Assembly (NCBI GenBank): GCA_937912225.1
Contig: CALDOJ010000036.1
Location: 31,191-95,190 of the forward strand
DNA: 64,000 nucleotides
Direction: 5' to 3'
From: Candidatus Woesearchaeota archaeon
GTDB lineage: Archaea > Nanobdellota > Nanobdellia > Woesearchaeales > GCA-2686295
A program made the position numbers and the translations under genes. This document shows, in pieces, positions 4,893 to 30,878 of this stretch (the stretch's first letter is position 1; each line of letters starts with the position of its first letter). A model generated the notes under the pieces. The model was not told where the DNA came from. It saw only the letters and a program-made list of their open reading frames with translations, and did no database searches.

Positions 4893-5420
4893 ATGGATTT
4901 ATATGAAGAAATAAAAAACAAACAAATCGTATTAGTTGTTCTTCCAAAAGCACAGTATATAAATAAGTTAATGGAAGTTGTTAAAGCAATTGATTCTGTT
5001 TCAAAAAAGATTTGTTATGTTGCTTTAAATAAGCCTTATAATAGCATTATGAGCATGCTTCAATCACATGAAATTCTTGTTGAGAAGTATTTTTTTATAG
5101 ATGTTCTTACTAGCTCTGTTAAGATTCCTGAACCTATCGAGTATTGCGAGTTTGTTCAATCTCCAAGTGCTTTAACTGATATAAGCTTGGGTTTTTCTAA
5201 AGCCATGCAAGAGAAAGGTTGTGATAATGCTATTTTTGATACTATTTCAACATTAATGATTTATCAAGACATTGGAGAAATTATTAAATTTACACAAAAC
5301 ATGATGACTAAGGCTCGAGTTAGCAATATGAAATCAGTTTATGTTACTCTAAAAGAAGACAGTGAAGAGTTAATTAAAGATTTGATGATGTTTGTTGATG
5401 GCGTTATTGAGTTAGAATAA
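4893..5420 (+). CDS. Hypothetical protein, possible KaiC/RecA-like fold lacking Walker A (DUF835-like)
   Basis: 175 aa. Alternating beta/alpha pattern (IVLVVLPKAQY…ICYVALNKPY…FFIDVLT…AIFDTIS…VYVTLKED) without a P-loop. Sits 11 nt after the previous gene and 33 nt before a CheY receiver. The family assignment is a guess from memory. Confidence 0.35.
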   Translation: MDLYEEIKNKQIVLVVLPKAQYINKLMEVVKAIDSVSKKICYVALNKPYNSIMSMLQSHEILVEKYFFIDVLTSSVKIPEPIEYCEFVQSPSALTDISLGFSKAMQEKGCDNAIFDTISTLMIYQDIGEIIKFTQNMMTKARVSNMKSVYVTLKEDSEELIKDLMMFVDGVIELE

Positions 5421-5453: not shown

Positions 5454-5831
5454 GTGATACTTATGGCTAAGAAAATTTTACTTGTGGATGACGAACCACA
5501 CATTATTGAACTTGAAAAAGCAATTCTTACACTTGAAGGTTTTGAAATTTTAACTGCTGAAGATGGAGCAACTGCTCTTGAAATATTAAAAACAGAAAAG
5601 CCTGACTTAGTTATTCTTGACATGATGATGCCTGGAATGAGTGGCAGGGAGACTTGTGACTCTATTCGAAAGAATCCTAAGACTAAAGATTTGAAGGTTA
5701 TCTTTGTGACTGTTGCTAAGTTTTCTGAGATGGGTCAAAAAAGTCTTGAAGAACTTGGAGTTTCAGATTATTTGACTAAACCATTTGATAATGATGAGTT
5801 AGTTGCAAGAGTTAAGAAAGCTTTAAAATAA
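5454..5831 (+). CDS. Stand-alone response regulator receiver (CheY-like) protein
   Basis: KILLVDDEPHIIELEKAILTLEGFEILTAEDGATALEIL…PDLVILDMMMPGMSG…KVIFVTV…LTKPF shows the canonical receiver layout (DD, phospho-acceptor D in LVILD, T, K). No output domain. Confidence 0.9.
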   Translation: MILMAKKILLVDDEPHIIELEKAILTLEGFEILTAEDGATALEILKTEKPDLVILDMMMPGMSGRETCDSIRKNPKTKDLKVIFVTVAKFSEMGQKSLEELGVSDYLTKPFDNDELVARVKKALK

Positions 5832-5839
5832 ATCTAAAA

Positions 5840-8800
5840 TTAATTATTTTCTTTAAATCTATTAAATACTGTTAGTTCGTGTTCTCCTTCTGCTCTCTTT
5901 GTTGTTGGAAGTGTAAAATAAAATGTTGAACCTTTGTTTAGCTTACTTTCAACCCACATACTTCCGCCTAATACTTCAATTATTCCTTTTGAAATTGCAA
6001 GTCCTAAACCAGTTCCACCAACTTTTCTAGTATATGAAGAATCTGCTTGGTAGAATCGTTCAAAGATTTTCTTTAAGTTTTTCTTTTCAATTCCTGTTCC
6101 TTCATCTTTAACTGCAAATAATAATTCTTTATCTTGTTTTTTAACTGAGATAATTATTTTAGTGTTAGGTTTGTCAGAATATTTGACAGCATTGTTTACC
6201 AAATTTACAATTACTTGTGATAACCTGCTTTTATCAACAATTGCATCTTGGATTTTAGAATCAACATTCATTTCTAATTCGACCTGTTTTTTAGCGGCCA
6301 TCACATACAATTCATTAACAACATCTTTTACTAATTCTGATAAATTAATTTTTTCAAAAAAGAATTTCATTGTTCCAAGGTCCAGTCTTGATAAATCTAA
6401 AATATCATCAATTAATTGTTTTAATCTATCTGCATCTTTCATTACAATGCTTAAATAATAATCTCGTTGTGTTTTATTTTCTAAAATCTTCTTATTTTGT
6501 AAAAGTGTTGCAAACCCGTGAATTGATGCTAATGGAGTTTTTAATTCGTGAGCGGTAACTGAAATAAACTCGCTTTTGTATTTGTCCATTTTCTTCATTT
6601 CTTTATTTGCAGCATTTAGTTCTTTATTGATTCCAACTAATCTTTTTTCAGATATCTCAAGTTCTTCTTTTGAAAGACTAACATCTTCAAGAATGTTAAG
6701 AACTGCAGTTCTTGTTTTTTCAAGTTCTTCGACTTTGTTATTTAACTCTACAGTTTTATTTTCAACTAAAGTTTCTAGTTCTTCTTCATGTAACTGTAAT
6801 TCTTTCCGAGATTCTTCTAATTCTTTAGTTCTTTCTTTAACAGTTATTTCTAAGTTAGTAGTTATTTTTTGAAGTTCGTTTGTTTTTTCATCAACTTCTT
6901 TTCTAAGAGTGTTTGTTAATAAAAAATTAAAAACTATTCCTATTATTAAAATTGCAAACATAATTCCTGCAGTAGAAGTCCAAATACTATTTATAGTCTG
7001 TTCAACAAAAGAAACTACTTCTGCTTCATCCATTTTAGTTACAATTCCAACATCTAATTCGGGTATATAATTGGTTACAGCAATAACAGGTGTGTTTCGA
7101 TAATCATTAAAATCTAAAAACACATCTTGATTATTTAACAAAGCTTGTGTTATTGGAATTTCAGTATTTTCTTTTGGAATGATATCTTGAGCTTCTGCTT
7201 CTGTTTCAAACCTTCTTTTGGAAAAAAATTCTGCATCTCCATTTCTATTCCTAAATGCCACTAAACTTTCTCCAGTTTCTCCCATACCAATTTCGTTATT
7301 AAATTTTTCAACTAAGACTTCTGTGTTTAAATTTGCAACTAACACTCCTTCATTATAAGGTATTGAAATAGAAAAAAATATTTTTTCTTCAGTCTCAGAA
7401 TAATAAACTGATTTAAAATAAGTTTCAATTTTTCCAAATAGGAATGCCTCCTCAGTTGATTTATCTAAACCAATATTTTGTTCGTTTGAAGAAGCAATTA
7501 CTATTCCGTCAGAATTTAAAATAAATAACTCGTTAAATTCATTGATGTTATTAACAAGCTTTTTTTGTTCTTCGATTGAAAGTTCTTCATCAATTGCAAA
7601 AATTTTAAGTCTATATTCTTGCTCTTTAAGATATTCCTGAATAAACTTTGATTGTAAGTTAGCAATTGTAGATAATTGACTTGCTATTGTTAATGATCGT
7701 TCTTCTTTCATAGACTGAGTAACATTATATGTGTTAAAAAGAAATAATCCTAATATTAATAACAATGAAATACTAAGTAAAATTACAACAGTGTTTTTCT
7801 CAAAATGAATTAGTTTTAATTTATATAAAAAAAATACTATTATTAGAATTATGATACCTACACCTATAAACACAAACATTAACTTAGTTAAGGATAATTC
7901 TTCTGATTTAACTTCTTCCTTGAATTGAGATATGTCCTGAATAACAACAACTGTTCCAACTTTATTTCCTCCAGCATCATAAAGTGCAAAACCACCATCT
8001 ACAAACGTCTTTTCGCCTAATGAAAATTCATGAAACATGCTCCCTTCATCAGATGATAATTTAAAGTGATTCTCATTAAATGAAGCTTCATTAAAAAGCA
8101 AGTTTGTTTTATCTGTAGAATCAATCAAAAGAAAGTCGTCCATATCATAATAATTATTTCTCAGCCCTTTAAGTTCTCTTATAAAAGCCCATTCATGTTC
8201 ATCAATGAAATCTTTTTTAACAACTATTCCATAATCAAAACCTGTTTGTTGTTTCATAGCGTTAATGAACTTATCAATTTCTTGACCGAATTCAACATAA
8301 CCAATTAATTCACCATTATAATAATAAGGATGAACTACTCTTAATGCAAAGGCAGTCTTTCCAAGTTCTATTCCAGCACCCCAAGAATTTGATAATTTAG
8401 ATTGTTCAAATGTGATTCTTGTTATTTCATCACCAAAAATATCTTTATTATGAACTCGTAAAAGATTAGTTCCGTTTAAATTATAAAAATAAAAATGTGT
8501 TATATCATATACTTCCTTGTTTTTATTAAACATTTCAACAACTGAATTATACAATTTATCTCTATCTCCTTCTAAAAAGATTTTTTTATATTCTTCTTGT
8601 TCCATAAAATTAGTCATTAAATTTTTCAAAGTAGTTACATCTTTTTCATTTAAAACATCAAAAACTATTTTTGCGTCTTGAATATTTTTTAAAACTAATT
8701 TTTCAAGAGAGATTTCAGATAATAATTCTTCCTTAGAAGTAAGTGTGATTCCTGATTCATATTCATCCAAGTAAGTAGTTGCTGCAACATGTAATCCAAC

Positions 8801-9310
8801 ACCATCAGCTGTTTTAGCATTAACAAGAACTATATGCATATATTTCTGTTTAATACTTCCATCTGCTTCTTCCCAATCATAAATACCTTCAGCTTCAACC
8901 CCGCCTTCTGTTTTTGACATAATATTCCAAAAACCAGGAAGTTTATCTGCAAGATTATGAAGGTCTAAATTAACTATGCTTGGATTAACGTGAAATCTTG
9001 CAATTAAAGAATTGTAATCAGTTACTGCTGTATAACCAGATTTACCAACTTGTTGAACTGCAATTTCTTGAAAGTAAGAATCATTTTGAAGATCTAAAAC
9101 TGTTTTATCAGGATTTAATGTAATATAAATCTCGATTTGTTTTGCAACATCAATTGCTTTTTGTTTAATAAACAATTCCGCTTGTTTTAAGAATTCGTTA
9201 GTTGAAGAAGATTCATAATCTGCTACTGATGTAACAGTATTACTTTCAGCAACAACTAAAGTTGAAACTAATAAAAACAATACAAAAATTAATTTAAACA
9301 ATTTATTCAT
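5840..9310 (-). CDS. Membrane sensor histidine kinase with two extracytoplasmic sensor regions, coiled-coil, HisKA and HATPase_c domains
   Basis: 1156 aa. Signal/TM at the N-terminus, at least four TM helices separating two large extracellular segments (Cache-like). H-box SEFISVTAHELKTPLASIHGF (plus 6507-6560, reverse). C-terminal GHKL ATPase motifs (N box …NLVNNAVKYS, G1 DEGTGI, G2 GGTGLGLAI). Convergent with the CheY gene, leaving an 8-bp gap. Confidence 0.9.
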   Translation of the reverse strand: MNKLFKLIFVLFLLVSTLVVAESNTVTSVADYESSSTNEFLKQAELFIKQKAIDVAKQIEIYITLNPDKTVLDLQNDSYFQEIAVQQVGKSGYTAVTDYNSLIARFHVNPSIVNLDLHNLADKLPGFWNIMSKTEGGVEAEGIYDWEEADGSIKQKYMHIVLVNAKTADGVGLHVAATTYLDEYESGITLTSKEELLSEISLEKLVLKNIQDAKIVFDVLNEKDVTTLKNLMTNFMEQEEYKKIFLEGDRDKLYNSVVEMFNKNKEVYDITHFYFYNLNGTNLLRVHNKDIFGDEITRITFEQSKLSNSWGAGIELGKTAFALRVVHPYYYNGELIGYVEFGQEIDKFINAMKQQTGFDYGIVVKKDFIDEHEWAFIRELKGLRNNYYDMDDFLLIDSTDKTNLLFNEASFNENHFKLSSDEGSMFHEFSLGEKTFVDGGFALYDAGGNKVGTVVVIQDISQFKEEVKSEELSLTKLMFVFIGVGIIILIIVFFLYKLKLIHFEKNTVVILLSISLLLILGLFLFNTYNVTQSMKEERSLTIASQLSTIANLQSKFIQEYLKEQEYRLKIFAIDEELSIEEQKKLVNNINEFNELFILNSDGIVIASSNEQNIGLDKSTEEAFLFGKIETYFKSVYYSETEEKIFFSISIPYNEGVLVANLNTEVLVEKFNNEIGMGETGESLVAFRNRNGDAEFFSKRRFETEAEAQDIIPKENTEIPITQALLNNQDVFLDFNDYRNTPVIAVTNYIPELDVGIVTKMDEAEVVSFVEQTINSIWTSTAGIMFAILIIGIVFNFLLTNTLRKEVDEKTNELQKITTNLEITVKERTKELEESRKELQLHEEELETLVENKTVELNNKVEELEKTRTAVLNILEDVSLSKEELEISEKRLVGINKELNAANKEMKKMDKYKSEFISVTAHELKTPLASIHGFATLLQNKKILENKTQRDYYLSIVMKDADRLKQLIDDILDLSRLDLGTMKFFFEKINLSELVKDVVNELYVMAAKKQVELEMNVDSKIQDAIVDKSRLSQVIVNLVNNAVKYSDKPNTKIIISVKKQDKELLFAVKDEGTGIEKKNLKKIFERFYQADSSYTRKVGGTGLGLAISKGIIEVLGGSMWVESKLNKGSTFYFTLPTTKRAEGEHELTVFNRFKENN

Positions 9311-10584
9311 TTTTTCTTTTCTAATTTTAATTCTAATTCTTTAACTTGTTTTTTTAATTCAACCATTTTCATTTCTCGTCCAACTGTTAAATTACTAAAT
9401 TTTTCTAGTTGTTCAATTTTTATTTTAAGCTCTTTTGTTCGGCTTTCTACTTCTGATTCTAATTCTTTCTCGTGATTTTTAATTTTATTATTTGATGTTT
9501 TTAACTCATCAGACATTTTATTAAATGCGACTGATAATTCTCCAAGTTCGTCTTTTGACTTGACTTGAATTTTATAATTAAGATTTTCTTTTGCGAATTC
9601 TTCAGTTCCTTTAACTATTTCTCCTAAAGGCGAAGTTATTGTTTTTGAAAAAAGGAATGCGAAAATACTTGCAAAAATTGTAATTAATAAACTAACAAAA
9701 ACTGTTGCTTTCATCAAATCATTTACTGGCTGTAATGCTTCTTCTGTATCTATGGCTGCTAACAGACAAATTTCTCGTTCTGGAATCCAAATATGATAAT
9801 CTATCACTTCAATATTTCTATAACCAATATATTTCAAAGAACTTTCTTTTCCGTCTAAGCAATCTTCAACACCTGAATTATAAATTGCGCCTTTAAGAGC
9901 CATGTCGTCTTTAAATCTTGATTCTGTTAACATATAATTAAATTTGTTCACTAAGTATGTTTCTCCTGTGTCACCCATACCAGAACGTTCAGTCAATATT
10001 GAACTAATAACTTTTAGATTAACTCTGCCAACCAATACTCCTTTAACTATTCCATTTTCATCTTTTATTGGTGTTGAAACAGTCATAGAAGGTAAATTTA
10101 ATGATAAATCATAATAAAAAGGTTGAATATAAGATTCTGTTAAACCACGCTTAAAATAAATTTCATTTGATTTAATCTTGCCTTCTTGTTTTTTATCAGT
10201 TGACATATGGGCTATGCCTTTTTCATTTAAGATAAATAATTCAAAAAAATTTTGACTTGGAGAATTTAAAGTTTTTATTAAATAATCTTGAAGTTTATGA
10301 TGAGCAATCATATCATTAGAATTTGAAACTTCATGAAAATTATTCATAGCATAAAATAAATTCAGAAGAGTCTCATCTTGAGATAATTCTTCTAAATGAT
10401 ATTTTTCTTCAATAATAAAACTTTCAACTTGATTGGCTTTTAATACTGCTATACTTTCTAATTGAGATCGGACTCTATCTTCAATAGAAGATTTACCTAT
10501 TATAAAAAAAATTAAACTACTTACAAGTATAATTATTAGAGCTAAACTAATAAACACGCTTATTAATTTTATACTTAGTTTCAA
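9307..10584 (-). CDS. Membrane sensor-domain protein with extracellular Cache-like domain, HAMP domain and C-terminal coiled-coil; no kinase domain
   Basis: N-terminal TM, periplasmic region, second TM (TVFVSLLITIFASIFAFLF), HAMP-like ITSPLGEIVKGTEEFAKENLNYKIQVKSKDELGELSVAFNKMSDELK. Ends in …EQLEKFSNLTVGREMKMVELKKQVKELE. The 4-nt overlap with the kinase start indicates co-translation. Confidence 0.75.
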   Translation of the reverse strand: MKLSIKLISVFISLALIIILVSSLIFFIIGKSSIEDRVRSQLESIAVLKANQVESFIIEEKYHLEELSQDETLLNLFYAMNNFHEVSNSNDMIAHHKLQDYLIKTLNSPSQNFFELFILNEKGIAHMSTDKKQEGKIKSNEIYFKRGLTESYIQPFYYDLSLNLPSMTVSTPIKDENGIVKGVLVGRVNLKVISSILTERSGMGDTGETYLVNKFNYMLTESRFKDDMALKGAIYNSGVEDCLDGKESSLKYIGYRNIEVIDYHIWIPEREICLLAAIDTEEALQPVNDLMKATVFVSLLITIFASIFAFLFSKTITSPLGEIVKGTEEFAKENLNYKIQVKSKDELGELSVAFNKMSDELKTSNNKIKNHEKELESEVESRTKELKIKIEQLEKFSNLTVGREMKMVELKKQVKELELKLEKKK

Positions 10585-10643
10585 ATTTTAAGTTCTAACC
10601 TCTTTTTTTAATAGTTCAATACATTCCAATATTTAAATCCGGT

Positions 10644-12548
10644 TCATTCTAAAAACTCAGTTGTAAAAACAGTTTCAATATCAAAAGAGTTTTCAAGTTC
10701 TCCAACAGAATCTAAATCTTCATATAGTTTCTGCCATTTTTCTTTAGTCATAAAACCTATTTTTTGTGATGAATCTGCTTTAAAATATTGAATTGAAGAT
10801 TGAAGCATGTTTTTTTGATGTACAGGGTCTAATCTTGCATCATATTCAAAAACAAATCCTGTTGAATCCTCAGGGTTTTCATAAACATACTCCCATCCTT
10901 TCAAAGTAGCTGATAAAAACTTTCTAACTAATTCCGGATTAGTTTTTATAAGCTCATCAGTTGTAAAGATAACATTATAATAACTATCAAATCCAAAATC
11001 TGAAGGGTACAAAACATTGACTTCATAATTCTCTTCTAAAGCTTCTTGTAATTCATTTATAGAAACTCCAGCAACTAAATCAACATTTTCATCAAATAAA
11101 GATTGCAAACCATATTGTTTAGATACAAAATTAATATTTGAAGAATCAACACCATTATTTTCTAAAAGAATCTTTTTGATGATTGCTTGTGAACCAATAC
11201 TTGCAATAGTTGTTCCTTCTAAATCTTTAAGAGATAAAATATTTTTTTCTTTTAAAGACAAAAACACTGTTGGATTCTTATAATAAACTGCCGCAATCGC
11301 CTTTAGTTTTGCACCAGAACTAATCTTCTTCAATAAATCAATTGGAATAGTAACTCCAAATTGATCATCTCCATTTATAACTCTATCTTCAATTGACGCA
11401 TCATAACCTGCTGAATGCAAATCAACTTTTAATCCTTCAGCACCATAATATCCTAGTTGGTCTGCAGCATAGAAACCTACGAATTGATTTTGATGCAACC
11501 AAGATAATTTTACATTTACTTCTTCTTCTTCTTCTTCTTCAGAATAAATTTTCTCTAAAAATTTAGTTGTATAAACTAATTCAGAACCAATTGGTCTACT
11601 TAATATTCCTTGTTCAAATAAAATTCTTTGAGTACCTTCCCATTCTTTAGATTCCATCCACCCAAGTGGACTGTCACCAGTATGAATTAAAGGAATACTC
11701 TGACTTAACATGTAAGTTTCATGTTCTCTTGTGCTATCAACAGCGTATTTTAAAACAGTTGTAACTGTTTCTTCTTCATTCTCAATAGCGTATTGCCAGC
11801 CTTTCAAAGTAGCTCTTAGAAAATCTTCTACTAATTCAGGATTATTATTAATCATATCATCAGTTGTAAACAATACATCTGCATAAATATTAGCTCCATA
11901 ATCGGCCATTAAAATCGTGTTTACTTCATGACCTGCTTGCATTGCTAAATGTGGTTCGTTAATAATATAACCAGTTGATACATCAGTATCACCAGCTAAT
12001 AATTCAGTCGCATCATAACCAATAGTTACTTCATTAATTTGACTACGATCAATCTTAAGCCTATTCATCATAGATGCATACAAAATTCCGACATTAATAT
12101 CAGTTCCATCACTAGCTCTTTCAATACCAACAGTTTTACCAACAAAATCTTGAGGACTAGTAATTCCGCTAGTTCCTAAAGAGTAAGCAACAACTGGATT
12201 AATTTTATATATTACTGCAATAGCTTTTAGTGGTAGACCTTGTTCTCGAGCTAAAATTAATTCATCAGCACCAGTTATTCCAAATTCGACATCACCTTTA
12301 GCAACAGCAGATATGGTTGGTTCTTCAAATGAAAAAGGCTCTATATTAACATTTAATCCTTCATCAGAATAAAAACTGTTTTCTTTAGCAACATAATTAC
12401 CTGCGAATTGAGATTGATGAAGCCATTTAAGTTTTAAAGTTACATCAGTTAGTTCTTTTTCTTTAAATAAGAAAAAACTAGATAACACTAAAATAGCAAC
12501 TAAAACAATAGCTGAGTTAATTAAAAAGGTTTTTTTTGTATGTTTCAT
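10644..12548 (-). CDS. Tandem-duplicated NMT1/THI5 (SsuA/TauA-like) solute-binding protein, membrane anchored
   Basis: Two homologous ~300-aa halves, each beginning LKLKWLHQSQFAG / VKLSWLHQNQFVG…, with the pattern typical of NMT1-like ABC substrate-binding proteins. They are joined by an EEEEEEE linker ((GAA)7 at 11521-11541). N-terminal signal-anchor. Confidence 0.75.
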   Translation of the reverse strand: MKHTKKTFLINSAIVLVAILVLSSFFLFKEKELTDVTLKLKWLHQSQFAGNYVAKENSFYSDEGLNVNIEPFSFEEPTISAVAKGDVEFGITGADELILAREQGLPLKAIAVIYKINPVVAYSLGTSGITSPQDFVGKTVGIERASDGTDINVGILYASMMNRLKIDRSQINEVTIGYDATELLAGDTDVSTGYIINEPHLAMQAGHEVNTILMADYGANIYADVLFTTDDMINNNPELVEDFLRATLKGWQYAIENEEETVTTVLKYAVDSTREHETYMLSQSIPLIHTGDSPLGWMESKEWEGTQRILFEQGILSRPIGSELVYTTKFLEKIYSEEEEEEEVNVKLSWLHQNQFVGFYAADQLGYYGAEGLKVDLHSAGYDASIEDRVINGDDQFGVTIPIDLLKKISSGAKLKAIAAVYYKNPTVFLSLKEKNILSLKDLEGTTIASIGSQAIIKKILLENNGVDSSNINFVSKQYGLQSLFDENVDLVAGVSINELQEALEENYEVNVLYPSDFGFDSYYNVIFTTDELIKTNPELVRKFLSATLKGWEYVYENPEDSTGFVFEYDARLDPVHQKNMLQSSIQYFKADSSQKIGFMTKEKWQKLYEDLDSVGELENSFDIETVFTTEFLE

Positions 12549-12566
12549 TTATTAGCCTCCAGCTCT

Positions 12567-13355
12567 TTAAATCCATTTATTAGTTATTTCTTCTATTTGT
12601 TTTCCCCAAATCATCGTACCTAATACTTGATTAACTTCATTCATCAAAAGATTATTTTCTTTCATTGAAGCTAAGCCATAAAATTCTTGAGTAAAAGGAG
12701 TACCTACTACTTTTAATGAAGGATTATTTTTAACCAATTCTAAACCTGCAATGTAATCTATAATGATTGCACTTAAGTTATCATTCAATAATGCAACTGT
12801 TGCAAGATCATAATCTTCATAAGATAATACTAAAGATTCACCAGCATATTTTACTGCTTCATCATAACTAGTTGTATCCATTTGAACACCAACTTTTTTA
12901 CCAAGTAAATCTTCAGGAGTTAAAACTGATTCATCTTCAGCACTCACAACAATTACTTGACCGGCATTAAAATAAGGGATGGAAAATAACATTTCTTGAG
13001 ATCTTTCATCAGTAATAGTTATTGAAGAAATTGCAAAATCAACTTCTCCAGCTTTCACAGCAACGAATAATTCATCCCAACCATAATTAACAAATTCAAT
13101 TTCTAAATTTAAACGCAAAGCTATTTCTCTTGCAACATCAACGTCTATTCCTGCAAATTCACCATTTTCATCTAAGAACTCCATTGGTTCATAAGGAATA
13201 TTTGTACCAACAATTAACTTTCCTCGTTCTTGTACTTTTGAAAACGAATCATCACTTAATTGTTCATTTAACAATTCATCATTAGTTGATGTACAACTAA
13301 TAGTCATCAAAGACAATATTACTAGTACTAAAAAAAACGCTTGTTTATATTTCAT
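12567..13355 (-). CDS. Family-3 (polar amino-acid type) periplasmic solute-binding lipoprotein
   Basis: Signal peptide with lipobox-like …LMTISCTST. GKLIVGTNIPYEPMEF…GEFAGIDVDVAREIALRLNLEIEFV…FAISSITITDERSQ…FSIPYF is classic SBP_bac_3. Confidence 0.8.
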   Translation of the reverse strand: MKYKQAFFLVLVILSLMTISCTSTNDELLNEQLSDDSFSKVQERGKLIVGTNIPYEPMEFLDENGEFAGIDVDVAREIALRLNLEIEFVNYGWDELFVAVKAGEVDFAISSITITDERSQEMLFSIPYFNAGQVIVVSAEDESVLTPEDLLGKKVGVQMDTTSYDEAVKYAGESLVLSYEDYDLATVALLNDNLSAIIIDYIAGLELVKNNPSLKVVGTPFTQEFYGLASMKENNLLMNEVNQVLGTMIWGKQIEEITNKWI

Positions 13356-13368
13356 ATTTATTTCACCT

Positions 13369-16300
13369 TCATTGTTTTTTCTTTAATCGTTTAATTTCTT
13401 CTTTTAGTTTGATCATTTGTAATTCTCTATTAATTGCATACGTATGAAATTTTTCAAGTTCTTCAGTTCTTCTCTTCAATGCTTCATCAGATTTTTTTCT
13501 ATGAGTAACATCTCTAAGAGCTCCTGCTATTCCAATAATCTTCCCAGAAGAATTTTTAATAGGTGCTTCATCAATCTCAGCCCAAAATATTTCTCCATTT
13601 TTCTTCTTGAATTCTAAAATATAAGGTTTTTGAATTACTCCTGTCTTTAAAGCTTTCACAGTTAGTTTTAAACCTTCATCATTAATAGGGTTTTTTGTTG
13701 TTAAAGTAGTCCATTTAACCATCATCTCTTCTGGTGTGTAACCAAATACTCTTTTAGAAAGAGGATTCACATATGATAATTTATGATTTGTATCATGAAT
13801 GTAGAACATGTCATCACTATGTTCAATAATAGTTTTATATTTTTTCTCACTAGCTTCTAACAAGTTCTCTGCTTCTTTTTGATCAGTTATATCTCTAAAT
13901 ATTTCCATAATAACTTTTTTACCTTTAAGATTCATACCAACATGATTAATTTCATAAGTTCTATTCCCAGCAACCCCTGTTGTAATAATACTTCTTCGCT
14001 CACCTAATTTAATAGGTTTCTTCAATGGACAATCACCACATTGTTTTTTATTATCCTTATAAAGATTATAACATTTCTTTCCAATTGCTTTTTTTCCAAA
14101 AATGTTTAAGAAAAATTCATTCATGTAAAGAATATTTAAGTTTTCATCAACAATATCCATTCCTTCAGGTAAAGCCTTAAGAATATTTTCTGAAAACTCT
14201 TTTTCTTTTCGAAGTTCTCCTTCCGCAGTCTTTATATTTGTGATATCTGAAAGAACTCCCTCATAACCTTTCGCCACACCATTTTTATTATATACAATTC
14301 TAACACTATCTCGCACCCATTTTATATCTCCAGTCTTAGTTTTAAGTTTATACTCACTAAAAAAGTATTTATCTTTTTTCTTAAGAGCTTTATTTAAAAC
14401 AGGAGTTATACGCGTTACATCATCCTCAAACATTAGACTAACATACGATCTAACTTTGTTATTAATAACATCACTAACAGGAAAACCTGTAACTTCTTTA
14501 AATGCAAAACTTGCAAAAGAAAAAGTCCAATTCATATCACATTTGTAAACAACACCAGGAACAGTGTCTATCATATTTCTAAATTGTTCCTCGCTTTCTT
14601 TTAATTTTTCTTCTGCAAGTTTTTTATCTGTAATATCTTGAGTTGTTCCTATTAATTTAACTACAACTCCTTTCTCTTTTTTAGTTTTGCATCTTGCATT
14701 TACCCACACAATGTTCCCAGAAGGTTGAACTAAACGTATTTCTATATTATATCCAACACCTGTTTTAGTAGTATTCGCAACAGAATCATTAAATAAATTC
14801 CAATCCTTTGGATGAATATATTTCTTATGCTCTTTATAATTAAGTTCTCCTTTTTTTGGATCAATACCAAATATTTTAAATAATTGTTCAGACCAAATAG
14901 GTTGTGCAGTTTTAACATCAAAACTCCAACTTCCAATACTGGCTACTTCTTGTGCTTCCATTAATTGTTCTTCACTTACTATTAATTCTTCTTCTGCTTG
15001 TTTTCTTTCAGTAATATCTCTAATAACACCAACTACTTTAACTGGTTTATTATTCTCATAAATTAATTGTCCAGATTCTTCAGCAAAAATATATTTTCCA
15101 TTCTTAAGTTTAAGTCTGAATTCTGTTGTCGTAACTTTTCCCGTCTTCCAGAGCATTTCAAAATCTTTCATAACAGATTTCAAATCATCAGGATGAACAA
15201 AATTAGACAAAGGTTTTCCAAGAACTTCTTTTACTCTATAACCATATTTACCAATATTATCTGAAACAAAAATAATATTTCCATTAATATCATAACTATA
15301 AATTATGTCTGAGACTTTATTAACAAGAGTTTTGAATTTTTCTTCACTTTCTTTTAACTTTTTCTTTGAAAGTTCTCTGGAAGTAATATCTTGAAAAATA
15401 CAATGTGTTCTTTGAAACACACCATTTTCATCATATTCTGCAGTTCCATTATATTCAACAAGGATATGTTCGCCATTTTTTTGTTTCATAGAAAAGAGAA
15501 TATCACAAGCAGTACCTGTTTTTTTAAAATTAGAAAAATTTGATTTAAAATCATTTAATTTATCAGATGAAACAAACTCTGAAAAATTCTTACCAATAAC
15601 ATCTTGTTTTTTATATCCAAGAATGTTTAACCAAGCAGGATTAACGTCTAATAAATCCCCGTTTGAATCTAAAGATTGATATGGAACTGGAATTTTTTGG
15701 TAAACTGTTCTAAATTTATTCTCGCTTTCTATTAACTTAGTTTCAAAAAGCTTTTTTTCAGTTATGTCTTGAGTTATTCCAATTGCATTTATTGCTTTAC
15801 CTTTTTTATCAAATAATATCTTTGCTTTTTCTTTTACCCACTTTACTTTTCCTTTTACTATAATACGATGTTCAAGATTATAAACTCCAGACTTTAAACC
15901 TTCAGTCCACTTTTTAGCAACATATTCTTTGTCATCAGGATGAATGGTTGCTAAAAAACTTGATAAATTTAGAGAAGCTCCTTGTTTAACTCCAAATATC
16001 TTATAATTTTGTTCAGTCCATTCTAAAATGTCATTAACAATATCTAACTTCCAAGTTCCAATCAAACCAATTTCTTGCGATTTTAATAATTTTGATTCAC
16101 TTTCTTTTAAAGCTTCTTCTGAAAGTTTTTTTTCAGTAATATCAACTGCAGCAGCATAAATATATTTACCGGCATGCGTTGTTTGCCATTCTAAAGTTCT
16201 ATAAGAACCATTCTTATGTTTATATCGATTAACAAAATTAATTATAGAGTCTCCTTTTAGTTGTTTTTCTTTAAGCTCAACAGCTATTCTTTTTAAATCA

Positions 16301-17742
16301 TCAGGATGAGAAAGTTTAGTCCAACCAAGATCTAAAAATTCTTTTTTAGTATAACCCAACATAGATTTACAAGAATTATTAACATTAATTATAGTCCCAT
16401 CAACTTTTGAAATAGTCATTAAAACAGGCGCAGATTCAAAAATATCTTTTAATTTTTCTTCACTTTCTCTCAAATCTTCTTCTGCTTTCTTACGTTCTGT
16501 TGTTATAGTAAAATAAACTGATATGCCTTCTTTAGAAGGGTAAACTCTAACATCATACCAATTAATATAAGGTTTCTTTCCAAAAAAGATTTCAAAAGTA
16601 ACTAATTTATTATTTTTTAAAGCATAAGTATATTTTTCTTCAAATATACTTCCCTTAGCTTCTTTAAACACTTCATTAAATATTTGTTTGCCTAAAATAT
16701 CTTTGCTCTTTTTATTTAAAAGTTCTTCAGATTTTTTATTAAAATAAGTAAATCTAAGGTCTTGATTTAGTGTGAAAAATGCATCACTAATGCTTTCCAC
16801 AGTTGTTCTAAGTTTCTCTTCACTTTCAATTAATTTTTTTCCTATTCTATTTTTTCTCAGAAAATTGTTGAAAAGACCACTTATTGTTGAAATTTCGTCC
16901 TTAACTTTTTTATCTATTTTCGTCTCAGATTCAACAATATCCAAACCTATAAATCCTTTTAATTCATTGTTCTCTGTTAAAGGTATGGTGATTAAAGATT
17001 TGATTTTTTGTAATTGAAAATGTTTTTTTTCTAATTTTGCTTCAGAAGGTAATTTTGCTACACTTTCAACAACAAAAGGTTTTAGTTTTAGTATTTGTTT
17101 ATTAAACCAAGGTAATTCTTTTTTTAAATTAATATTTTTTAAATTATTTATTTCTGGCTTCACTCCTTTTCTACACCATTCATGAGTATTTGACATAAAC
17201 TTTCCTGAAACAGAAAAAATATAACTTCTATCTGCATGAAAATAATTTCCAATAGTTTCTAAAGCTTTATTTATAACATCATCAACTAATTCTTTATCAT
17301 AATCAATAAAAGACATAGAAAGTTCATTTAAGATATTCTCAAACAACAATTTTTGCTTTAAAAGTTTTTCTGCGTTTTTTTGTTCAGTAATATCTCTAAG
17401 AATTGTTTGTAAAGCAATTACTTTACCATTTTTCTTTATTGGTCGACTTTTATACTCCATAAAAAAGTTTCCTTTCGGAGCAATTATTTCAACAGAACCA
17501 TGAGTTGGTTTACCTTTAGCTAAGTCAAGCATTTCTTTTGTAAGCTGAAGAACATGTTTTTTTACAACCAATTTATACGTGGACTCACCAATTAAATCTG
17601 ATTCTTTAAAGCCATATTTATTAACTGCTTTATTTGCATAAAGAACTCTACCTTTTAGATCTATAAATAGAATTATATCTGTAAAGTTATCAAACAGGTC
17701 TGATTTAAAATTACTAGTACTAATCTCTGGTTTTTTACCCAT
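13369..17742 (-). CDS. Cytoplasmic multi-PAS/PAC (about 10 repeats) plus GAF sensor protein lacking a catalytic output domain
   Basis: 1457 aa. PAS/PAC signatures recur throughout (…DITE(Q/R)K…AEE.L…SEEK(L/F)…). A GAF-like block near residues 150-300. A Cys cluster CYNLYKDNKKQCGDCPLKK. Ends in …RRTEELEKFHTYAINRELQMIKLKEEIKRLKKKQ. The 13-nt gap to the SBP gene indicates co-transcription. Confidence 0.8.
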   Translation of the reverse strand: MGKKPEISTSNFKSDLFDNFTDIILFIDLKGRVLYANKAVNKYGFKESDLIGESTYKLVVKKHVLQLTKEMLDLAKGKPTHGSVEIIAPKGNFFMEYKSRPIKKNGKVIALQTILRDITEQKNAEKLLKQKLLFENILNELSMSFIDYDKELVDDVINKALETIGNYFHADRSYIFSVSGKFMSNTHEWCRKGVKPEINNLKNINLKKELPWFNKQILKLKPFVVESVAKLPSEAKLEKKHFQLQKIKSLITIPLTENNELKGFIGLDIVESETKIDKKVKDEISTISGLFNNFLRKNRIGKKLIESEEKLRTTVESISDAFFTLNQDLRFTYFNKKSEELLNKKSKDILGKQIFNEVFKEAKGSIFEEKYTYALKNNKLVTFEIFFGKKPYINWYDVRVYPSKEGISVYFTITTERKKAEEDLRESEEKLKDIFESAPVLMTISKVDGTIINVNNSCKSMLGYTKKEFLDLGWTKLSHPDDLKRIAVELKEKQLKGDSIINFVNRYKHKNGSYRTLEWQTTHAGKYIYAAAVDITEKKLSEEALKESESKLLKSQEIGLIGTWKLDIVNDILEWTEQNYKIFGVKQGASLNLSSFLATIHPDDKEYVAKKWTEGLKSGVYNLEHRIIVKGKVKWVKEKAKILFDKKGKAINAIGITQDITEKKLFETKLIESENKFRTVYQKIPVPYQSLDSNGDLLDVNPAWLNILGYKKQDVIGKNFSEFVSSDKLNDFKSNFSNFKKTGTACDILFSMKQKNGEHILVEYNGTAEYDENGVFQRTHCIFQDITSRELSKKKLKESEEKFKTLVNKVSDIIYSYDINGNIIFVSDNIGKYGYRVKEVLGKPLSNFVHPDDLKSVMKDFEMLWKTGKVTTTEFRLKLKNGKYIFAEESGQLIYENNKPVKVVGVIRDITERKQAEEELIVSEEQLMEAQEVASIGSWSFDVKTAQPIWSEQLFKIFGIDPKKGELNYKEHKKYIHPKDWNLFNDSVANTTKTGVGYNIEIRLVQPSGNIVWVNARCKTKKEKGVVVKLIGTTQDITDKKLAEEKLKESEEQFRNMIDTVPGVVYKCDMNWTFSFASFAFKEVTGFPVSDVINNKVRSYVSLMFEDDVTRITPVLNKALKKKDKYFFSEYKLKTKTGDIKWVRDSVRIVYNKNGVAKGYEGVLSDITNIKTAEGELRKEKEFSENILKALPEGMDIVDENLNILYMNEFFLNIFGKKAIGKKCYNLYKDNKKQCGDCPLKKPIKLGERRSIITTGVAGNRTYEINHVGMNLKGKKVIMEIFRDITDQKEAENLLEASEKKYKTIIEHSDDMFYIHDTNHKLSYVNPLSKRVFGYTPEEMMVKWTTLTTKNPINDEGLKLTVKALKTGVIQKPYILEFKKKNGEIFWAEIDEAPIKNSSGKIIGIAGALRDVTHRKKSDEALKRRTEELEKFHTYAINRELQMIKLKEEIKRLKKKQ

Positions 17743-17788: not shown

Positions 17789-18925
17789 TTATTCGTCGGA
17801 ACTTTTAAACATATCTTCTGCAGTTGTTGGTTTTGTTTCAGATTCTTGTTCTGTTTGTACAACTGGTTCAGCTTTAGCAGGTGCAGAGTCTATAGATGCA
17901 AGTTCTGCAGGTGCAGTTTGTTTAACAGGTTCTTCTTCAACAGACTTTTCTTCGCTTTCACCTTCAGCTTTTACTTCTTGCTTTTTTCCTCCAAACAAAC
18001 CAAAAAGTTTTTTCTTTTCTTCAGGCTTAGATTCTTCTTCACTGTTTCTTTCTTCAGCTTCTGATTCTTCCAAATTAACCTTATACTTCTTTTGTAATTT
18101 ATCAGTTAATTGTTTAAACATTAATTTTAAATCAGTTTTTGTATGTTTACTTCTTTCGTCTAATAATTTAATAACTGTGCCTGTATGTTTCTCAAAATCA
18201 TTAAATTTGTTAAGCAAATCAACGAATTCTTTTTTCTCAGCTTTCTGATCAGTTTGAACTCTCATTTTATCAAAATCAGCTTGCATTTTTTTGAACTCAC
18301 GATTTATATCTTTAACTTGTGAATCAAATTTATCAAATTCAGAAAACTTTTTCTCAACATCTAAAAAAATCGTTTCAACTCTATCAGCATGTCTTTCAAC
18401 AATTGACTCGACTTTTTTAAGATTAGCCAACTCATTTTTTATTTCTTCATGTAATTTTATTATTTGCTCAGTTCCTTTGTAAACATCCATTTGACCACGC
18501 ATACCTTTCAACTGAGACATGATATCCTTCATCAAAGATTCATTTCCTTCAATGTTGGCCTTAAGAGCTTCAATTTTCCCATCTGTTTTTCGAAGTTCAG
18601 TCATGAATACACTTGGTTGAACTGTTTCTACTTCATCAATGGCTTTTGTGGCTTTTACTTCTACTTTTGAAAAAGCTTGTTCTAAATCATTAAGCATACC
18701 TCTAATCTCACCCATTTGTTCAGTTACAATTCCAAATCTTTCAGTAGTGGATTTTCTTATCTCATTTAAAGAATCAATCTGACCTTTTATTTTAGCCAGT
18801 TCTATTTCTACTTGTCCACCAAGATTAGCACCTCTATTTTTAGGGGATGATTCTTCTATTTCCTGCTCAGCAGGATTCTCATCACCTTCTCCTATAGTAG
18901 GGCCTGATTTATTCCAAAAAGCCAT
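17789..18925 (-). CDS. Coiled-coil protein with acidic, low-complexity C-terminal tail (hypothetical)
   Basis: 378 aa. Heptad-rich central region (…LEQAFSKVEVKATKAIDEVE…LANLKKVESIVERHADRV…). Glu/Lys-rich tail …EESEAEERNSEEESKPEEKKKLFGLFGG…. Last gene of the seven-gene minus-strand operon. Confidence 0.55.
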   Translation of the reverse strand: MAFWNKSGPTIGEGDENPAEQEIEESSPKNRGANLGGQVEIELAKIKGQIDSLNEIRKSTTERFGIVTEQMGEIRGMLNDLEQAFSKVEVKATKAIDEVETVQPSVFMTELRKTDGKIEALKANIEGNESLMKDIMSQLKGMRGQMDVYKGTEQIIKLHEEIKNELANLKKVESIVERHADRVETIFLDVEKKFSEFDKFDSQVKDINREFKKMQADFDKMRVQTDQKAEKKEFVDLLNKFNDFEKHTGTVIKLLDERSKHTKTDLKLMFKQLTDKLQKKYKVNLEESEAEERNSEEESKPEEKKKLFGLFGGKKQEVKAEGESEEKSVEEEPVKQTAPAELASIDSAPAKAEPVVQTEQESETKPTTAEDMFKSSDE

Positions 18926-19775
18926 TATCTACCTCTTTTTTTTCTTTTAATATGTTTGACATTATTCTCTTATCCCTTATCCCTTTAATGTTTTTCGCTA
19001 ACTCAGGTTGATGAAAAACAAATTCAATCCACATTGAAAAATCATTATCATAGTTTCGTGTATGAAACTCAAAATCCTCAGGGTTCATAAAACTTAAAGC
19101 AGTTATTAAATCTTGTATTGATGTTAAAAGCTTCCCACTTTTCAAACGAAAGAATTTTTCAGGATCTATTACTAGTTCAAGTTTTGGTTCTGTAACTGTT
19201 TCATCAACTTCACTCTGAGGCTCTACTTCTAGCTTATCAGATTCTGTGGTTGTGACTGTCTCTTCAGAAGTATTTTCTGGCTTAACTGGTTCATTCTGAG
19301 GCTCTACTTCTGGTACATAAGAAGTTTCCTTCTGAACACTAGAACTTTCAGTTCTTTGTGTACTAGTAGCTTCGTTACTATTTTCTTCTTTTATATCTAA
19401 ATCTTCTCTGTTTGAATTATTCTCTTTCATTCCTTCTTCAAAAGCTTGAGCCTTTTCTTCATTTAACTTTTCTTTAATCTTTCTTTCAACTTCTGCTTTA
19501 ATATCTACCAAAGGTAATCTTGATTCTTCAATTAATTCCTCTTCTGAAAATTTTAAAATATTCTTAATAACTTCATAGTCTTCTTGTTTTCGAGTATACT
19601 GAGCCCATCGTAATTTTGAATCAAGACTTCTAAGATGAAAGTCTGCTATTGAAGGATTATGACCTTCTTTTCTTAATTCAGTTATTCTTGACTTTAACTC
19701 TCGAACATGACTTCTCAAATCCTCTGTTAAAATTTCATTTTCTTTATCCGAAACTAATTGTTTATTTTTACTCAT
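18909..19775 (-). CDS. Acidic linker protein with C-terminal copy of a conserved ~65-aa 'KNDF-W' module (hypothetical)
   Basis: C-terminal EKFFRLKSGKLLTSIQDLITALSFMNPEDFEFHTRNYDNDFSMWIEFVFHQPELAKNI, preceded by a long E/T/V-rich acidic low-complexity region. 4-nt overlap with the next gene. Confidence 0.6.
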   Translation of the reverse strand: MSKNKQLVSDKENEILTEDLRSHVRELKSRITELRKEGHNPSIADFHLRSLDSKLRWAQYTRKQEDYEVIKNILKFSEEELIEESRLPLVDIKAEVERKIKEKLNEEKAQAFEEGMKENNSNREDLDIKEENSNEATSTQRTESSSVQKETSYVPEVEPQNEPVKPENTSEETVTTTESDKLEVEPQSEVDETVTEPKLELVIDPEKFFRLKSGKLLTSIQDLITALSFMNPEDFEFHTRNYDNDFSMWIEFVFHQPELAKNIKGIRDKRIMSNILKEKKEVDNGFLE

Positions 19776-20602
19776 TTCAATTTCTCATTTACTTCATCAT
19801 TCAAGTCATTTATATCAGAATCAAGTGCTCTTACTTGTCCTTCTACAAAACTTGGTTTTCCAAAAAATAATTTTCCTAAAAATTTATTATTACTAATTTT
19901 TTCTTTTATTTTTTGAAAAAAGTTTTTCTTTGATTTTTCTTTTGAATGAACTGATTCTTTCTTTTTAACTTTCTTTTTCACTTCCTTTTTTACTTCTTCG
20001 TCTTCCTTCTTAATTTCTTCAGCTTCTTTTTCAACTTTTTTCTCAGATTTTTCCTCTCTTGCTTCTTTTGATTCATCAAGTGCTTTTTGAATTTCTACAA
20101 CTTCAGGACTATTGTCTTCTTCAATTGTTTTATTCAAATTAATTTCTGGCAATTTAGAATCAGAATCAACTTCTTTTTCTGGCTCAACCAAGGGTTTAAC
20201 TTCTTGTTCATCAGCTTCTTTATTTGAATCGTCAGAAGTTTCATCTTTGAACATATCATCAATTTTCTTATTAGATTCTTGTTCTGATTCAAAAGGTTCT
20301 TTCTTAACAGGTTCTGATTCTGTTTTCTGATTTTCATCCGGATTCTTAATTAAATCGTGAAAATAATCATCGATTAATTTAATCATAGAATCCTTATCTT
20401 TAGCTTTTTCTAAAACATCCGCCAGTTCATTATTTTTGAAAACACCTTTAACCCAAATAGCAAAATCATTCTTCTCTGAATTAACATGCAAAGCGAATTC
20501 TTCATCAGATCCTTTATCTAAAAAAACTCTAAATTCACCTATAGTTCTCAAAACTTCTCCATTGCCTAAATAAAAATATTCCTCTTGTTTCAAATTCCTC
20601 AC
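19772..20602 (-). CDS. Protein with N-terminal 'KNDF-W' module followed by a highly charged K/E-rich low-complexity tail (hypothetical)
   Basis: N-terminal EYFYLGNGEVLRTIGEFRVFLDKGSDEEFALHVNSEKNDFAIWVKGVFKNNELADVLEK, then a KE-rich disordered region. Confidence 0.6.
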   Translation of the reverse strand: MRNLKQEEYFYLGNGEVLRTIGEFRVFLDKGSDEEFALHVNSEKNDFAIWVKGVFKNNELADVLEKAKDKDSMIKLIDDYFHDLIKNPDENQKTESEPVKKEPFESEQESNKKIDDMFKDETSDDSNKEADEQEVKPLVEPEKEVDSDSKLPEINLNKTIEEDNSPEVVEIQKALDESKEAREEKSEKKVEKEAEEIKKEDEEVKKEVKKKVKKKESVHSKEKSKKNFFQKIKEKISNNKFLGKLFFGKPSFVEGQVRALDSDINDLNDEVNEKLK

Positions 20603-30803: not shown

Positions 30804-30878
30804 GGACCTGTGGCGCAGTCTGGATAGCGCGATAGCCTCCTAAGCTATAGGTCGGGGGTTCAAATCCTCCCTGGTCCG
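30804..30878 (+). tRNA. tRNA-Arg (anticodon CCT)
   Basis: 75-nt cloverleaf folded by hand: acceptor GGACCTG/CTGGTCC (one T·T mismatch), D-arm GCGC-AGTCTGGATA-GCGC, anticodon arm ATAGC-CTCCTAA-GCTAT (CCT at positions 34-36), T-arm GGGGG-TTCAAAT-CCTCC, discriminator G. No encoded CCA. Confidence 0.9.

Follow-up and report, generated by a model that had tools for sequence, protein, structure and literature searches.

A conserved C-terminal heptad tail of kinase-less sensors and the LNILED coil of histidine kinases: a candidate coupling pair in a Woesearchaeota operon and elsewhere

The S-helix is a signal-transmitting heptad coiled coil of ~40 residues with a conserved arginine at heptad position 'd', and is defined by an ERT signature and by having a domain of the same protein on either side (Anantharaman, Balaji and Aravind, 2006; PMC1592074). 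It is the closest described element to the subject of this study, a C-terminal motif termed here the GRE tail, which ends two sensor proteins that lack a kinase domain in a 64-kb stretch of DNA from a Candidatus Woesearchaeota archaeon (contig CALDOJ010000036.1; hereafter the window, to which all feature coordinates refer). The two sensor genes share a gene row with a histidine kinase that bears a second motif, LNILED, upstream of its dimerization and histidine phosphotransfer (DHp) domain. Both the S-helix and the tail follow PAS, HAMP, PocR and GAF sensor modules, both place an arginine in 'd' flanked by polar residues, with ERT occupying positions c, d and e of the former and G-R-E the same positions of the latter, and both are proposed to transmit conformational signals. 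Assessed as an S-helix, the tail proved to be a heptad coil with Arg16 in 'd' that is phase-locked to PAS or HAMP, but it lacks both ERT and an interdomain location: its signature is FN.L.VGRELKM.ELKK and its position is C-terminal. As an (E/S/R)RT heptad lies 14–21 residues upstream of GRE, the tail is an additional element and not the S-helix itself.

In chemoreceptor-CheA/CheW arrays, dimeric coiled-coil receptors that have varied sensor domains and no kinase domain control a separate kinase through a conserved helical contact, with many receptors per kinase. The tail proteins are likened to this logic as kinase-less coiled-coil sensors controlling a separately encoded kinase. Unlike in CheA systems, the contact would be with a coil within the kinase itself, and the kinases are of the ordinary HisKA or HisKA_2 types. 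The MCPsignal domain (PF00015) was absent from both window sensors and from the 25 most frequent Pfam families among 62 long tail proteins, a survey in which CheA/CheW partners were not specifically sought. A separate protein modulates the kinase, and the genes often are adjacent, in accessory-sensor systems such as LuxP-LuxQ and TorT-TorS, in inhibition of KinA by Sda or KipI and of FixL by FixT, and in the RetS-GacS DHp heteromers. These systems use globular periplasmic contacts or binding to the DHp or the catalytic and ATP-binding (CA) domain, and we know of none with a portable, cognate pair of heptad motifs. The tail system resembles them in the separate modulator and the adjacent genes, and would differ in a portable heptad pair that sensors of many types have in common. 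Moeglich and colleagues reportedly found the PAS-DHp linker lengths of fused sensor kinases to be quantized by seven, implying rigid coiled-coil transmission; in the tail system the quantization instead appears separately on two polypeptides, from sensor to tail and from LNILED to the phospho-accepting histidine. Heptad-periodic PAS-DHp linkers have been reviewed (PMC6798134), and GacS/RetS is mentioned elsewhere (PMC12148439). In split histidine kinases the DHp and CA domains reside on separate proteins, for example Hik36-Hik43 (PMC3591291; PMC7656254). Function is likewise spread over two adjacent genes in the tail system, but here the kinase core is intact and it is the sensor that is detached.

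The GRE tail has the consensus ELE[KR]FN[KR]L.VGREL[KR]M[IV]ELKK.I.EL. An independent tail profile constructed from 33 tails, all from other organisms, was scored against 86 open reading frame (ORF) segments of the window. The membrane dCache_1-HAMP sensor (425 amino acids; 9307..10584, minus strand; Pfam), which terminates in ...IEQLEKFSNLTVGREMKMVELKKQVKELELKLEKKK*, produced 48.3 bits (E 2e-15) at residues 388–425 (IKIEQLEKFSNLTVGREMKMVELKKQVKELELKLEKKK; 9310..9423, minus strand). The cytoplasmic PAS-array sensor (1457 amino acids; 13369..17742, minus strand) yielded 36.4 bits (E 1e-11) at residues 1424–1457 (RRTEELEKFHTYAINRELQMIKLKEEIKRLKKKQ; 13372..13473, minus strand). Both values are far above chance, the next-best ORF segment reaching 4.9 bits, and the motif occurs nowhere else in the window. 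The core of the Cache-HAMP tail is Gly402-Arg403-Glu404, and R403, E404 and K411 do not vary across 19 homologues of this sensor. In the PAS protein the tail deviates from the consensus, with Gly replaced by Asn1438 and Lys by Gln, and retains the conserved Arg1439-Glu1440. All of ~25 homologues of the Cache-HAMP sensor (409–435 amino acids) end in the tail motif, ~20–30 residues before the stop codon.

Pfam and NCBIfam models detected only PAS-type domains in the PAS-array protein, with neither HisKA/HATPase nor an output domain, and detected no HisKA, HATPase or other output domain in the Cache-HAMP sensor. Both window sensors thus fit the definition of a GRE-tail protein, namely a terminal motif ~20–45 residues from the end and no output domain. 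An initial annotation of the window, made from the sequence, had counted 10 PAS domains in the upstream protein, which agrees with the 10 sensory_box stretches that were detected; it also had reported the C-terminal sequences of both sensors, the H-box of the kinase, and the absence from the sensors of a kinase or CA domain and of a phospho-acceptor histidine, all of which were borne out by the ORF translations and the Pfam searches. An AlphaFold2 (AF2) model of the Cache-HAMP sensor, computed from a 19-sequence alignment and with a confidence (pLDDT) of 86, displayed one uninterrupted helix over residues 346–424 that runs from the second HAMP helix (AS2) through the S-helix to the end of the protein.

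The distribution of the tail extends well beyond the window. A two-sequence tail profile run against word-indexed proteins gave 2 matches, the query being too short for a database of that size, and was replaced by an exhaustive profile search. In that search, hmmsearch of 1.84e9 representative proteins recovered 15,826 tail proteins with E<=1e-3, among which 853 have E<=1e-10; the sets analyzed below, for the tail and for LNILED alike, are the best-scoring matches. The motif lay 19–47 residues from the C-terminus in the 150 best matches and was terminal in nearly all. Among 62 matches of at least 250 amino acids, PAS (49), PocR (11) and HAMP (10) predominated, with dCache, GAF, CBS, SBP_bac_3, MASE1 and CHASE4 also present, and Pfam detected no output domain in any of the 62. 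A scan of one genome per species returned >600 pattern matches and at least 526 confirmed tail sites. The archaeal sites are in DPANN, Thermoplasmata and Methanoperedenaceae, and the bacterial sites in Bacteroidota, Ignavibacteria, Desulfuromonadales, Myxococcales, Bdellovibrio, Planctomycetota, Chloroflexi, Nitrospirae and phyla of the candidate phyla radiation (CPR). The motif closes the ORF in 78 of 78 analyzable genomic loci. The tails therefore are supported as a specific conserved element, unlike the generic coiled-coil ends that the initial annotation had named as the outcome that would speak against it.

Certain proteins possess two tail motifs (P0125–P0128, P0133–P0135, P0141 and P0246). 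The internal copy closes an upstream sensor module and is followed by a short 'LG..P' linker and more sensor domains, with the second copy terminal, such that these proteins resemble two sensor-tail modules fused head to tail.

Neither motif is covered by a Pfam or NCBIfam model. Sequence searches of the PDB with tail and LNILED profiles retrieved chance coiled-coil matches and one weak match to LmuB, and hence no structural template for either motif. The latter match, of the LNILED profile to residues 183–211 of the Lamassu protein LmuB (PDB 9ux7 chain A; ...SLLNVLEDYRHEN; E 0.0014), is probably due to chance. No description of either motif was found in a literature search whose coverage of subscription journals was incomplete, such that an earlier description is possible; the tail/LNILED pair appears to be undescribed.

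The genes that surround tail genes were examined at the 78 analyzable loci. The gene that follows is co-directional in 73/78 cases and overlapping in 28/78. A kinase core is encoded at positions +1, +2 and +3 in 28/78, 17/71 and 10/65 loci, respectively, compared with 5/69, 7/57 and 3/53 at positions −1, −2 and −3, and the polarity between +1 and −1 is pronounced (p 2e-5). The Pfam families at +1 include HATPase_c (28), HisKA (27) and HisKA_2 (3), as well as 4HB_MCP_1 (3) and CheR (3). Receiver genes peak at +2 and +3 (20/71 at +2). The recurrence of the order sensor-tail, kinase and receiver across archaeal and bacterial phyla, often with overlapping stop and start codons, ties the sensors functionally to the kinase. 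The commonest sensor/kinase junction is the −4 overlap that is found also in the window, where the TGA codon of the Cache-HAMP gene and the ATG codon of the kinase gene share the sequence ATGA (9307..9310, minus strand), a configuration of translational coupling. Overlaps of this type favor stoichiometric co-synthesis of sensor and kinase. A second Woesearchaeota contig (L001) mirrors the entire order in the window: PAS-tail protein, NMT1 protein, Cache-HAMP-tail protein and LNILED kinase.

The short sensor-kinase junctions at metagenome loci L084–L163 are almost exclusively −4, −1, +2 or +5 nt, a single frame offset. This uniformity probably reflects a small number of related clades and two standard forms of overlap. 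Fusion of sensor and kinase by frameshifting or read-through was considered and rejected: −4 and −1 are ordinary overlaps, the +2 and +5 junctions group into a handful of related clades, and the window kinase has a membrane helix of its own at its start.

The window kinase (1156 amino acids; 5840..9310, minus strand) consists of dCache_3, dCache_1, a long coiled coil, HisKA and HATPase_c according to Pfam. It is the sole two-component kinase (HisKA plus HATPase_c) in the window, with 266 bits (E 1e-81) against a kinase-core profile that elsewhere in the window gave a single weak ATPase-fold match of 23 bits. The H-box in DHp helix 1, identified from the sequence and Pfam, spans residues 913–927 and includes His921 (SEFISVTAHELKTPL; 6530..6574, minus strand). 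Upstream of it the kinase has exactly one LNILED unit, the proposed socket for the tail, at residues 862–882 with Asn872 and Asp876 (ELEKTRTAVLNILEDVSLSKE; 6665..6727, minus strand). The unit was detected at E 8e-9 with a repeat profile assembled only from other loci, which matched nowhere else in the window. More generally, the LNILED unit has the consensus (L)E.TQRA.LNILED[FY]s.EK and is present upstream of the DHp domain in 1–6 units of exactly 21 residues. Many of the kinases at +1 are short (290–380 amino acids) and sensor-less, the entire N-terminus comprising tandem LNILED copies at the exact 21-residue spacing, and Pfam recognized only HisKA and HATPase_c in these short kinases.

The LNILED motif is concentrated in kinases that follow tail genes. 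It is present in 24/28 kinases at +1, 9/17 at +2 and 3/10 at +3, but in 1/15 kinases encoded upstream at −1 to −3 (p 5e-7 versus +1) and in 9/49 related Cache-HAMP kinases (p 7e-9 versus +1). An ORF with LNILED occurs within three genes downstream of the tail gene at 41/78 loci. The repeats precede not only HisKA domains but also HisKA_2 domains of the HWE-like type with the H-box HHRVKNNL (L054 8223..9260; L070 8301..9239; P0281; P0360), which indicates that the common denominator is the coil and not a particular H-box. In a tblastn search of plasmids with an LNILED plus DHp query, matches were mostly to the DHp part and no experimentally studied example was retrieved.

Tail and LNILED rarely occur in one chain. 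The 178 tail proteins included one weak LNILED match and one kinase core (P0103), in which the tail is internal and followed by PAS; the fused tail-kinase proteins for which the initial annotation recommended a search accordingly are very rare (1/178). Among 108 matches to a chimeric tail plus LNILED profile, one small protein has both motifs. This protein (P0302; 98 amino acids; L164 424..720) carries one LNILED unit and a tail motif 31 residues later, and could be an adaptor or a competitor. AF2 predicted one continuous helix over residues 28–86, which is uninformative on docking.

In the reciprocal direction, a metagenome scan with a two-repeat LNILED profile identified at least 80 loci, 68 of which have at least 450 nt of upstream DNA. 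Among the matches listed, most are kinases of 300–560 amino acids with 2–6 repeats. In at least 65 of the 68 loci the kinase gene is directly preceded by a tail-ending ORF of the same orientation, the two being typically −4 to ~50 nt apart. As a control selected by neither motif, the contexts of Cache-HAMP kinases recovered by similarity of the sensor part were inspected. A tail protein is encoded two genes upstream in 3/4 of the evaluable LNILED-positive kinases (L166, L168 and L169, but not L167; the LNILED of L169 is the variant AMVNLLAD), and these three loci have the order PAS-tail, NMT1 and kinase as in the window. No tail protein was present with 3/3 LNILED-negative Cache-HAMP kinases (L170–L172).

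The spacing of both motifs follows heptads. Residues L6, F9, A13, R16, M20, L23, I27 and L30 of the tail occupy a/d positions, with the invariant Arg in core 'd', Gly at c, Glu at e and extra hydrophobic residues at b/f. In LNILED, residues L2, T5, V9, I12 and F16 are in a/d, the invariant Asn and Asp are at c and g, and extra hydrophobic residues occupy b/e. Hydrophobic residues outside the a/d core in both motifs agree with packing in bundles that exceed two helices. In 94 of ~100 kinases with a linker of <80 amino acids, the last LNILED Asn precedes the phospho-accepting His by 28, 35, 42, 49, 56 or 77 residues. In the window kinase, Asn872 and His921 are 49 residues, or 7 heptads, apart. 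Because the repeat measures 21 residues, all LNILED units are in phase with one another with respect to His. In the sensors, the interval from the PAS motif 'D[IV]T' to the tail Arg is 21, 28, 35, 42 or 49 residues in 155/193 cases, and 28 residues (4 heptads) from 'DVT' in the window PAS protein. The ERT Arg of the S-helix mostly lies 21 residues before the tail Arg, as does the 'SRT' Arg in the window HAMP protein (3 heptads). The tail Gly and the LNILED Asn share position +20 relative to the ERT heptad. Judging from these sequence intervals, the tail keeps a rigid heptad phase with the sensor domain that it follows, and LNILED keeps one with the phospho-His.

Overall, we regard it as reasonably probable that the GRE tail is a conserved output or docking module whose partner is the LNILED coil of the kinase. 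The tail would represent the last 4–5 heptads of a coiled coil that rigidly continues the output helix of the sensor, either after PAS or after HAMP and an ERT S-helix. A dimeric tail may pack side by side on the LNILED coiled coil, the simplest arrangement being a parallel four-helix bundle, and the contact would be a non-covalent stand-in for the helix that runs without a break from sensor to DHp in ordinary sensor kinases. Rotation or shift of the sensor helix in response to a signal would pass to the DHp domain and change autophosphorylation. In the window, the PAS array, the Cache-HAMP sensor with its associated solute-binding protein, and the two Cache domains of the kinase itself could converge on His921 and the receiver. 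The broader proposition has in our estimation an even chance of being correct: that the tail and LNILED are a portable plug-and-socket pair of heptad motifs that non-covalently couples separate sensors to both HisKA and HisKA_2 kinases in bacteria and archaea, with multi-repeat kinases as hubs where the inputs of several sensors are combined and the helical phase to the phospho-His is preserved. Such a kinase could accommodate several sensors, among them ones with genes at other loci.

Several observations weigh against docking of the tail on LNILED. No LNILED gene occurs within three genes downstream at 37/78 tail loci, for example L003, which implies either that the partners are encoded elsewhere or that the tail has further roles. 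Recognizable LNILED is missing from 4/28 kinases at +1, and the number of repeats does not track the number of adjacent tail genes. Charges at tail positions 26/28 and socket positions 17/20 covary in a complementary manner, but two lineages confound this signal and it is not used as evidence. Finally, no solved structure with either motif was found in the PDB, and physical contact, its orientation and stoichiometry, bundle geometry and direction of regulation are what we infer from the sequences.

The best-surviving alternative is that the tail is a homodimerization cap that extends the S-helix, that any coupling is by PAS-PAS, membrane or periplasmic contacts, and that the correlation with LNILED reflects shared operon ancestry. 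The heptad regularity of the tail and its continuity with the S-helix agree with this possibility, as do the Arg in 'd' of the S-helix (PMC1592074) and the half of the tail loci without a nearby LNILED gene. However, the invariant non-core Gly, Glu and Lys residues and the outward hydrophobic stripe would be unneeded in a simple dimer, and the short LNILED kinases offer the sensor no other domain to contact. Furthermore, unrelated sensors (PAS, PocR, HAMP, Cache, CBS and MASE1) pair with one kinase motif across phyla, and the reciprocal adjacency is at least 65/68. A cap without a partner on the kinase is judged unlikely.

The initial annotation had instead read both tails as histidine-less versions of DHp helix 1, aligned with the H-box of the kinase, and had proposed that they may dock onto the DHp domain or hetero-oligomerize with it. 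More precisely, a degenerate helix 1 would insert into, or heterodimerize with, the DHp four-helix bundle. The tail and helix 1 of DHp/HisKA are both helical and dimer-forming and are alike at the level of a pentapeptide, x[H/R]EL[KR]; a short resemblance can be written as xF...V[G/S][R/H]EL[KR], and gene adjacency to kinases fits this explanation equally well. The likeness did not extend further. Profile-profile comparison by hhalign of 30 tails with the DHp domains of 50 related kinases was non-significant (probability 0.3%, P=0.2), and the sole local (Viterbi) match covered 8 columns, LTVGREMK against SVTAHELK, in which the His column is aligned with the tail Arg and not with Gly/Asn. The independent tail profile did not match the H-box region of the window kinase, and Pfam detected no HisKA (PF00512) match on either window sensor. 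The tails possess Gly/Asn-Arg-Glu where the H-box His would be claimed and no phospho-accepting His. The helix 1-turn-helix 2 hairpin and the CA domain also are absent: the single helix 346–424 in the AF2 model ends the protein, and there is no HATPase_c.

The relatives of the Cache-HAMP sensor provide a further comparison. Close relatives in which the Cache-HAMP-S-helix part is ~40% identical are complete kinases, and in these it is ...T[KR].A.LNILED....K.L that follows the S-helix where the tail would be, with the H-box 35–42 residues later. Moreover, HisKA_2-type kinases, with the very different H-box HHRVKNNL, are likewise paired with these tails, and the kinase feature that co-varies with the tail in presence and absence is LNILED and not the DHp domain, which every kinase has. 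The pseudo-DHp assignment therefore was set aside as quite improbable, and with it the DHp domain as docking target. What persists from the initial annotation is that the feature is real and that its purpose, the coupling of sensors to a kinase, had been guessed roughly right: gene order and conservation back the proposal that separate sensors feed one kinase through their C-terminal helices, whereas the identity assigned to those helices does not hold.

It is similarly doubtful that the tail recruits some other partner, whether a receiver, another tail sensor or a further factor, with LNILED as a separate regulatory coil. Tail genes often have a receiver gene nearby, whether downstream (20/71 at +2) or immediately upstream (13/57), and proteins with two tails exist. 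Nevertheless, receivers are ubiquitous beside kinases and those near tail genes are of no specific subtype, no other family is consistently adjacent, and the near-obligate pairing with multi-repeat LNILED kinases would be unexplained. Although intact kinases with the same sensor part exist among close relatives, the notion that gene splitting or truncation left the kinase-less sensors as decaying remnants with functionless tails was dismissed as barely credible in view of thousands of intact conserved examples with invariant residues in many phyla, conserved overlapping start/stop junctions, and synteny that is kept between distant Woesearchaeota contigs.

Docking of the tail on the LNILED coil would have consequences for annotation. 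Databases abound in output-less proteins labeled 'PAS domain S-box protein' or 'HAMP domain-containing protein' that have no known signaling route, and in short sensor-less kinases. If tail and LNILED are cognate, the two groups explain each other as two-subunit sensor kinases. A single kinase then could take input from several interchangeable sensors, a role would be found for thousands of output-less proteins of the PAS, HAMP, Cache and PocR types, and reconstruction of two-component networks would change as partners could be predicted by motif. The pair also would provide a natural test bed for coiled-coil signals that cross a non-covalent interface and a small (~35 plus 21 residues) modular connector for biosensor engineering. 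The window operon would be a testable three-input system in a DPANN-type archaeon, comprising the PAS array, two solute-binding proteins, the Cache-HAMP sensor, the kinase and a receiver.

The window has a GC content of ~29%, and the best homologues are from Woesearchaeota/Nanoarchaeota metagenome-assembled genomes. The minus-strand row is tight and consists of the genes for the PAS array, an SBP_bac_3 protein, a double NMT1 protein, the dCache_1-HAMP sensor and the histidine kinase. The SBP_bac_3 protein is a secreted or lipoprotein solute-binding protein (12567..13355, minus strand; Pfam PF00497, E 4e-36), and the double NMT1-type solute-binding protein (634 amino acids; 10644..12548, minus strand) has two PF09084 stretches (E 8e-97). 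A stand-alone receiver protein (5454..5831, plus strand; Pfam Response_reg, E 5e-31) is encoded convergently with the kinase gene and is the probable cognate response regulator of the window kinase. Neighboring genes of the row specify a CDC48-type AAA ATPase, a HerA-like ATPase and pyruvate phosphate dikinase, which together with the best homologues indicate an archaeon of the DPANN type.

A gene for a solute-binding protein (NMT1, ABC_sub_bind or SBP_bac_3) is positioned directly upstream of Cache-HAMP sensors or kinases at many DPANN, CPR and other loci. An NMT1 gene occupies this position at L001, L003, L004, L166 and L168–L172. The upstream solute-binding gene occurs whether or not the Cache-HAMP protein has a kinase domain. 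The recurrence of this neighbor suggests that the Cache domain senses its ligand in a manner dependent on the solute-binding protein, and the adjacent solute-binding proteins in the window probably serve the Cache-HAMP sensor.

At the receiver end of the row, a KaiC/RecA-like protein of 175 amino acids (4893..5420, plus strand; weak PF06745 match) is encoded after two large unannotated ORFs, 137..3538 (1133 amino acids) and 3535..4881 (448 amino acids). A counterpart trio of 1276, 434 and 173 amino acids, the last a DUF7504 protein, adjoins the homologous sensor-kinase operon on contig L001 (14908..20586). Genes for DUF7504/KaiC-like proteins of 171–176 amino acids also lie directly upstream of tail-sensor genes at four archaeal loci (L006, L030, L050 and L071). 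At the opposite end, three consecutive acidic proteins that are coiled-coil or of low complexity and belong to no Pfam family (378, 288 and 276 amino acids; 17789..20602, minus strand) are encoded upstream of the PAS gene and downstream of the gene for the HerA-like ATPase (20640..22829). Large PKD and CarboxypepD_reg surface proteins are specified at 22851..27553, and a single tRNA gene (30804..30878, plus strand) is the sole Rfam match in the window.

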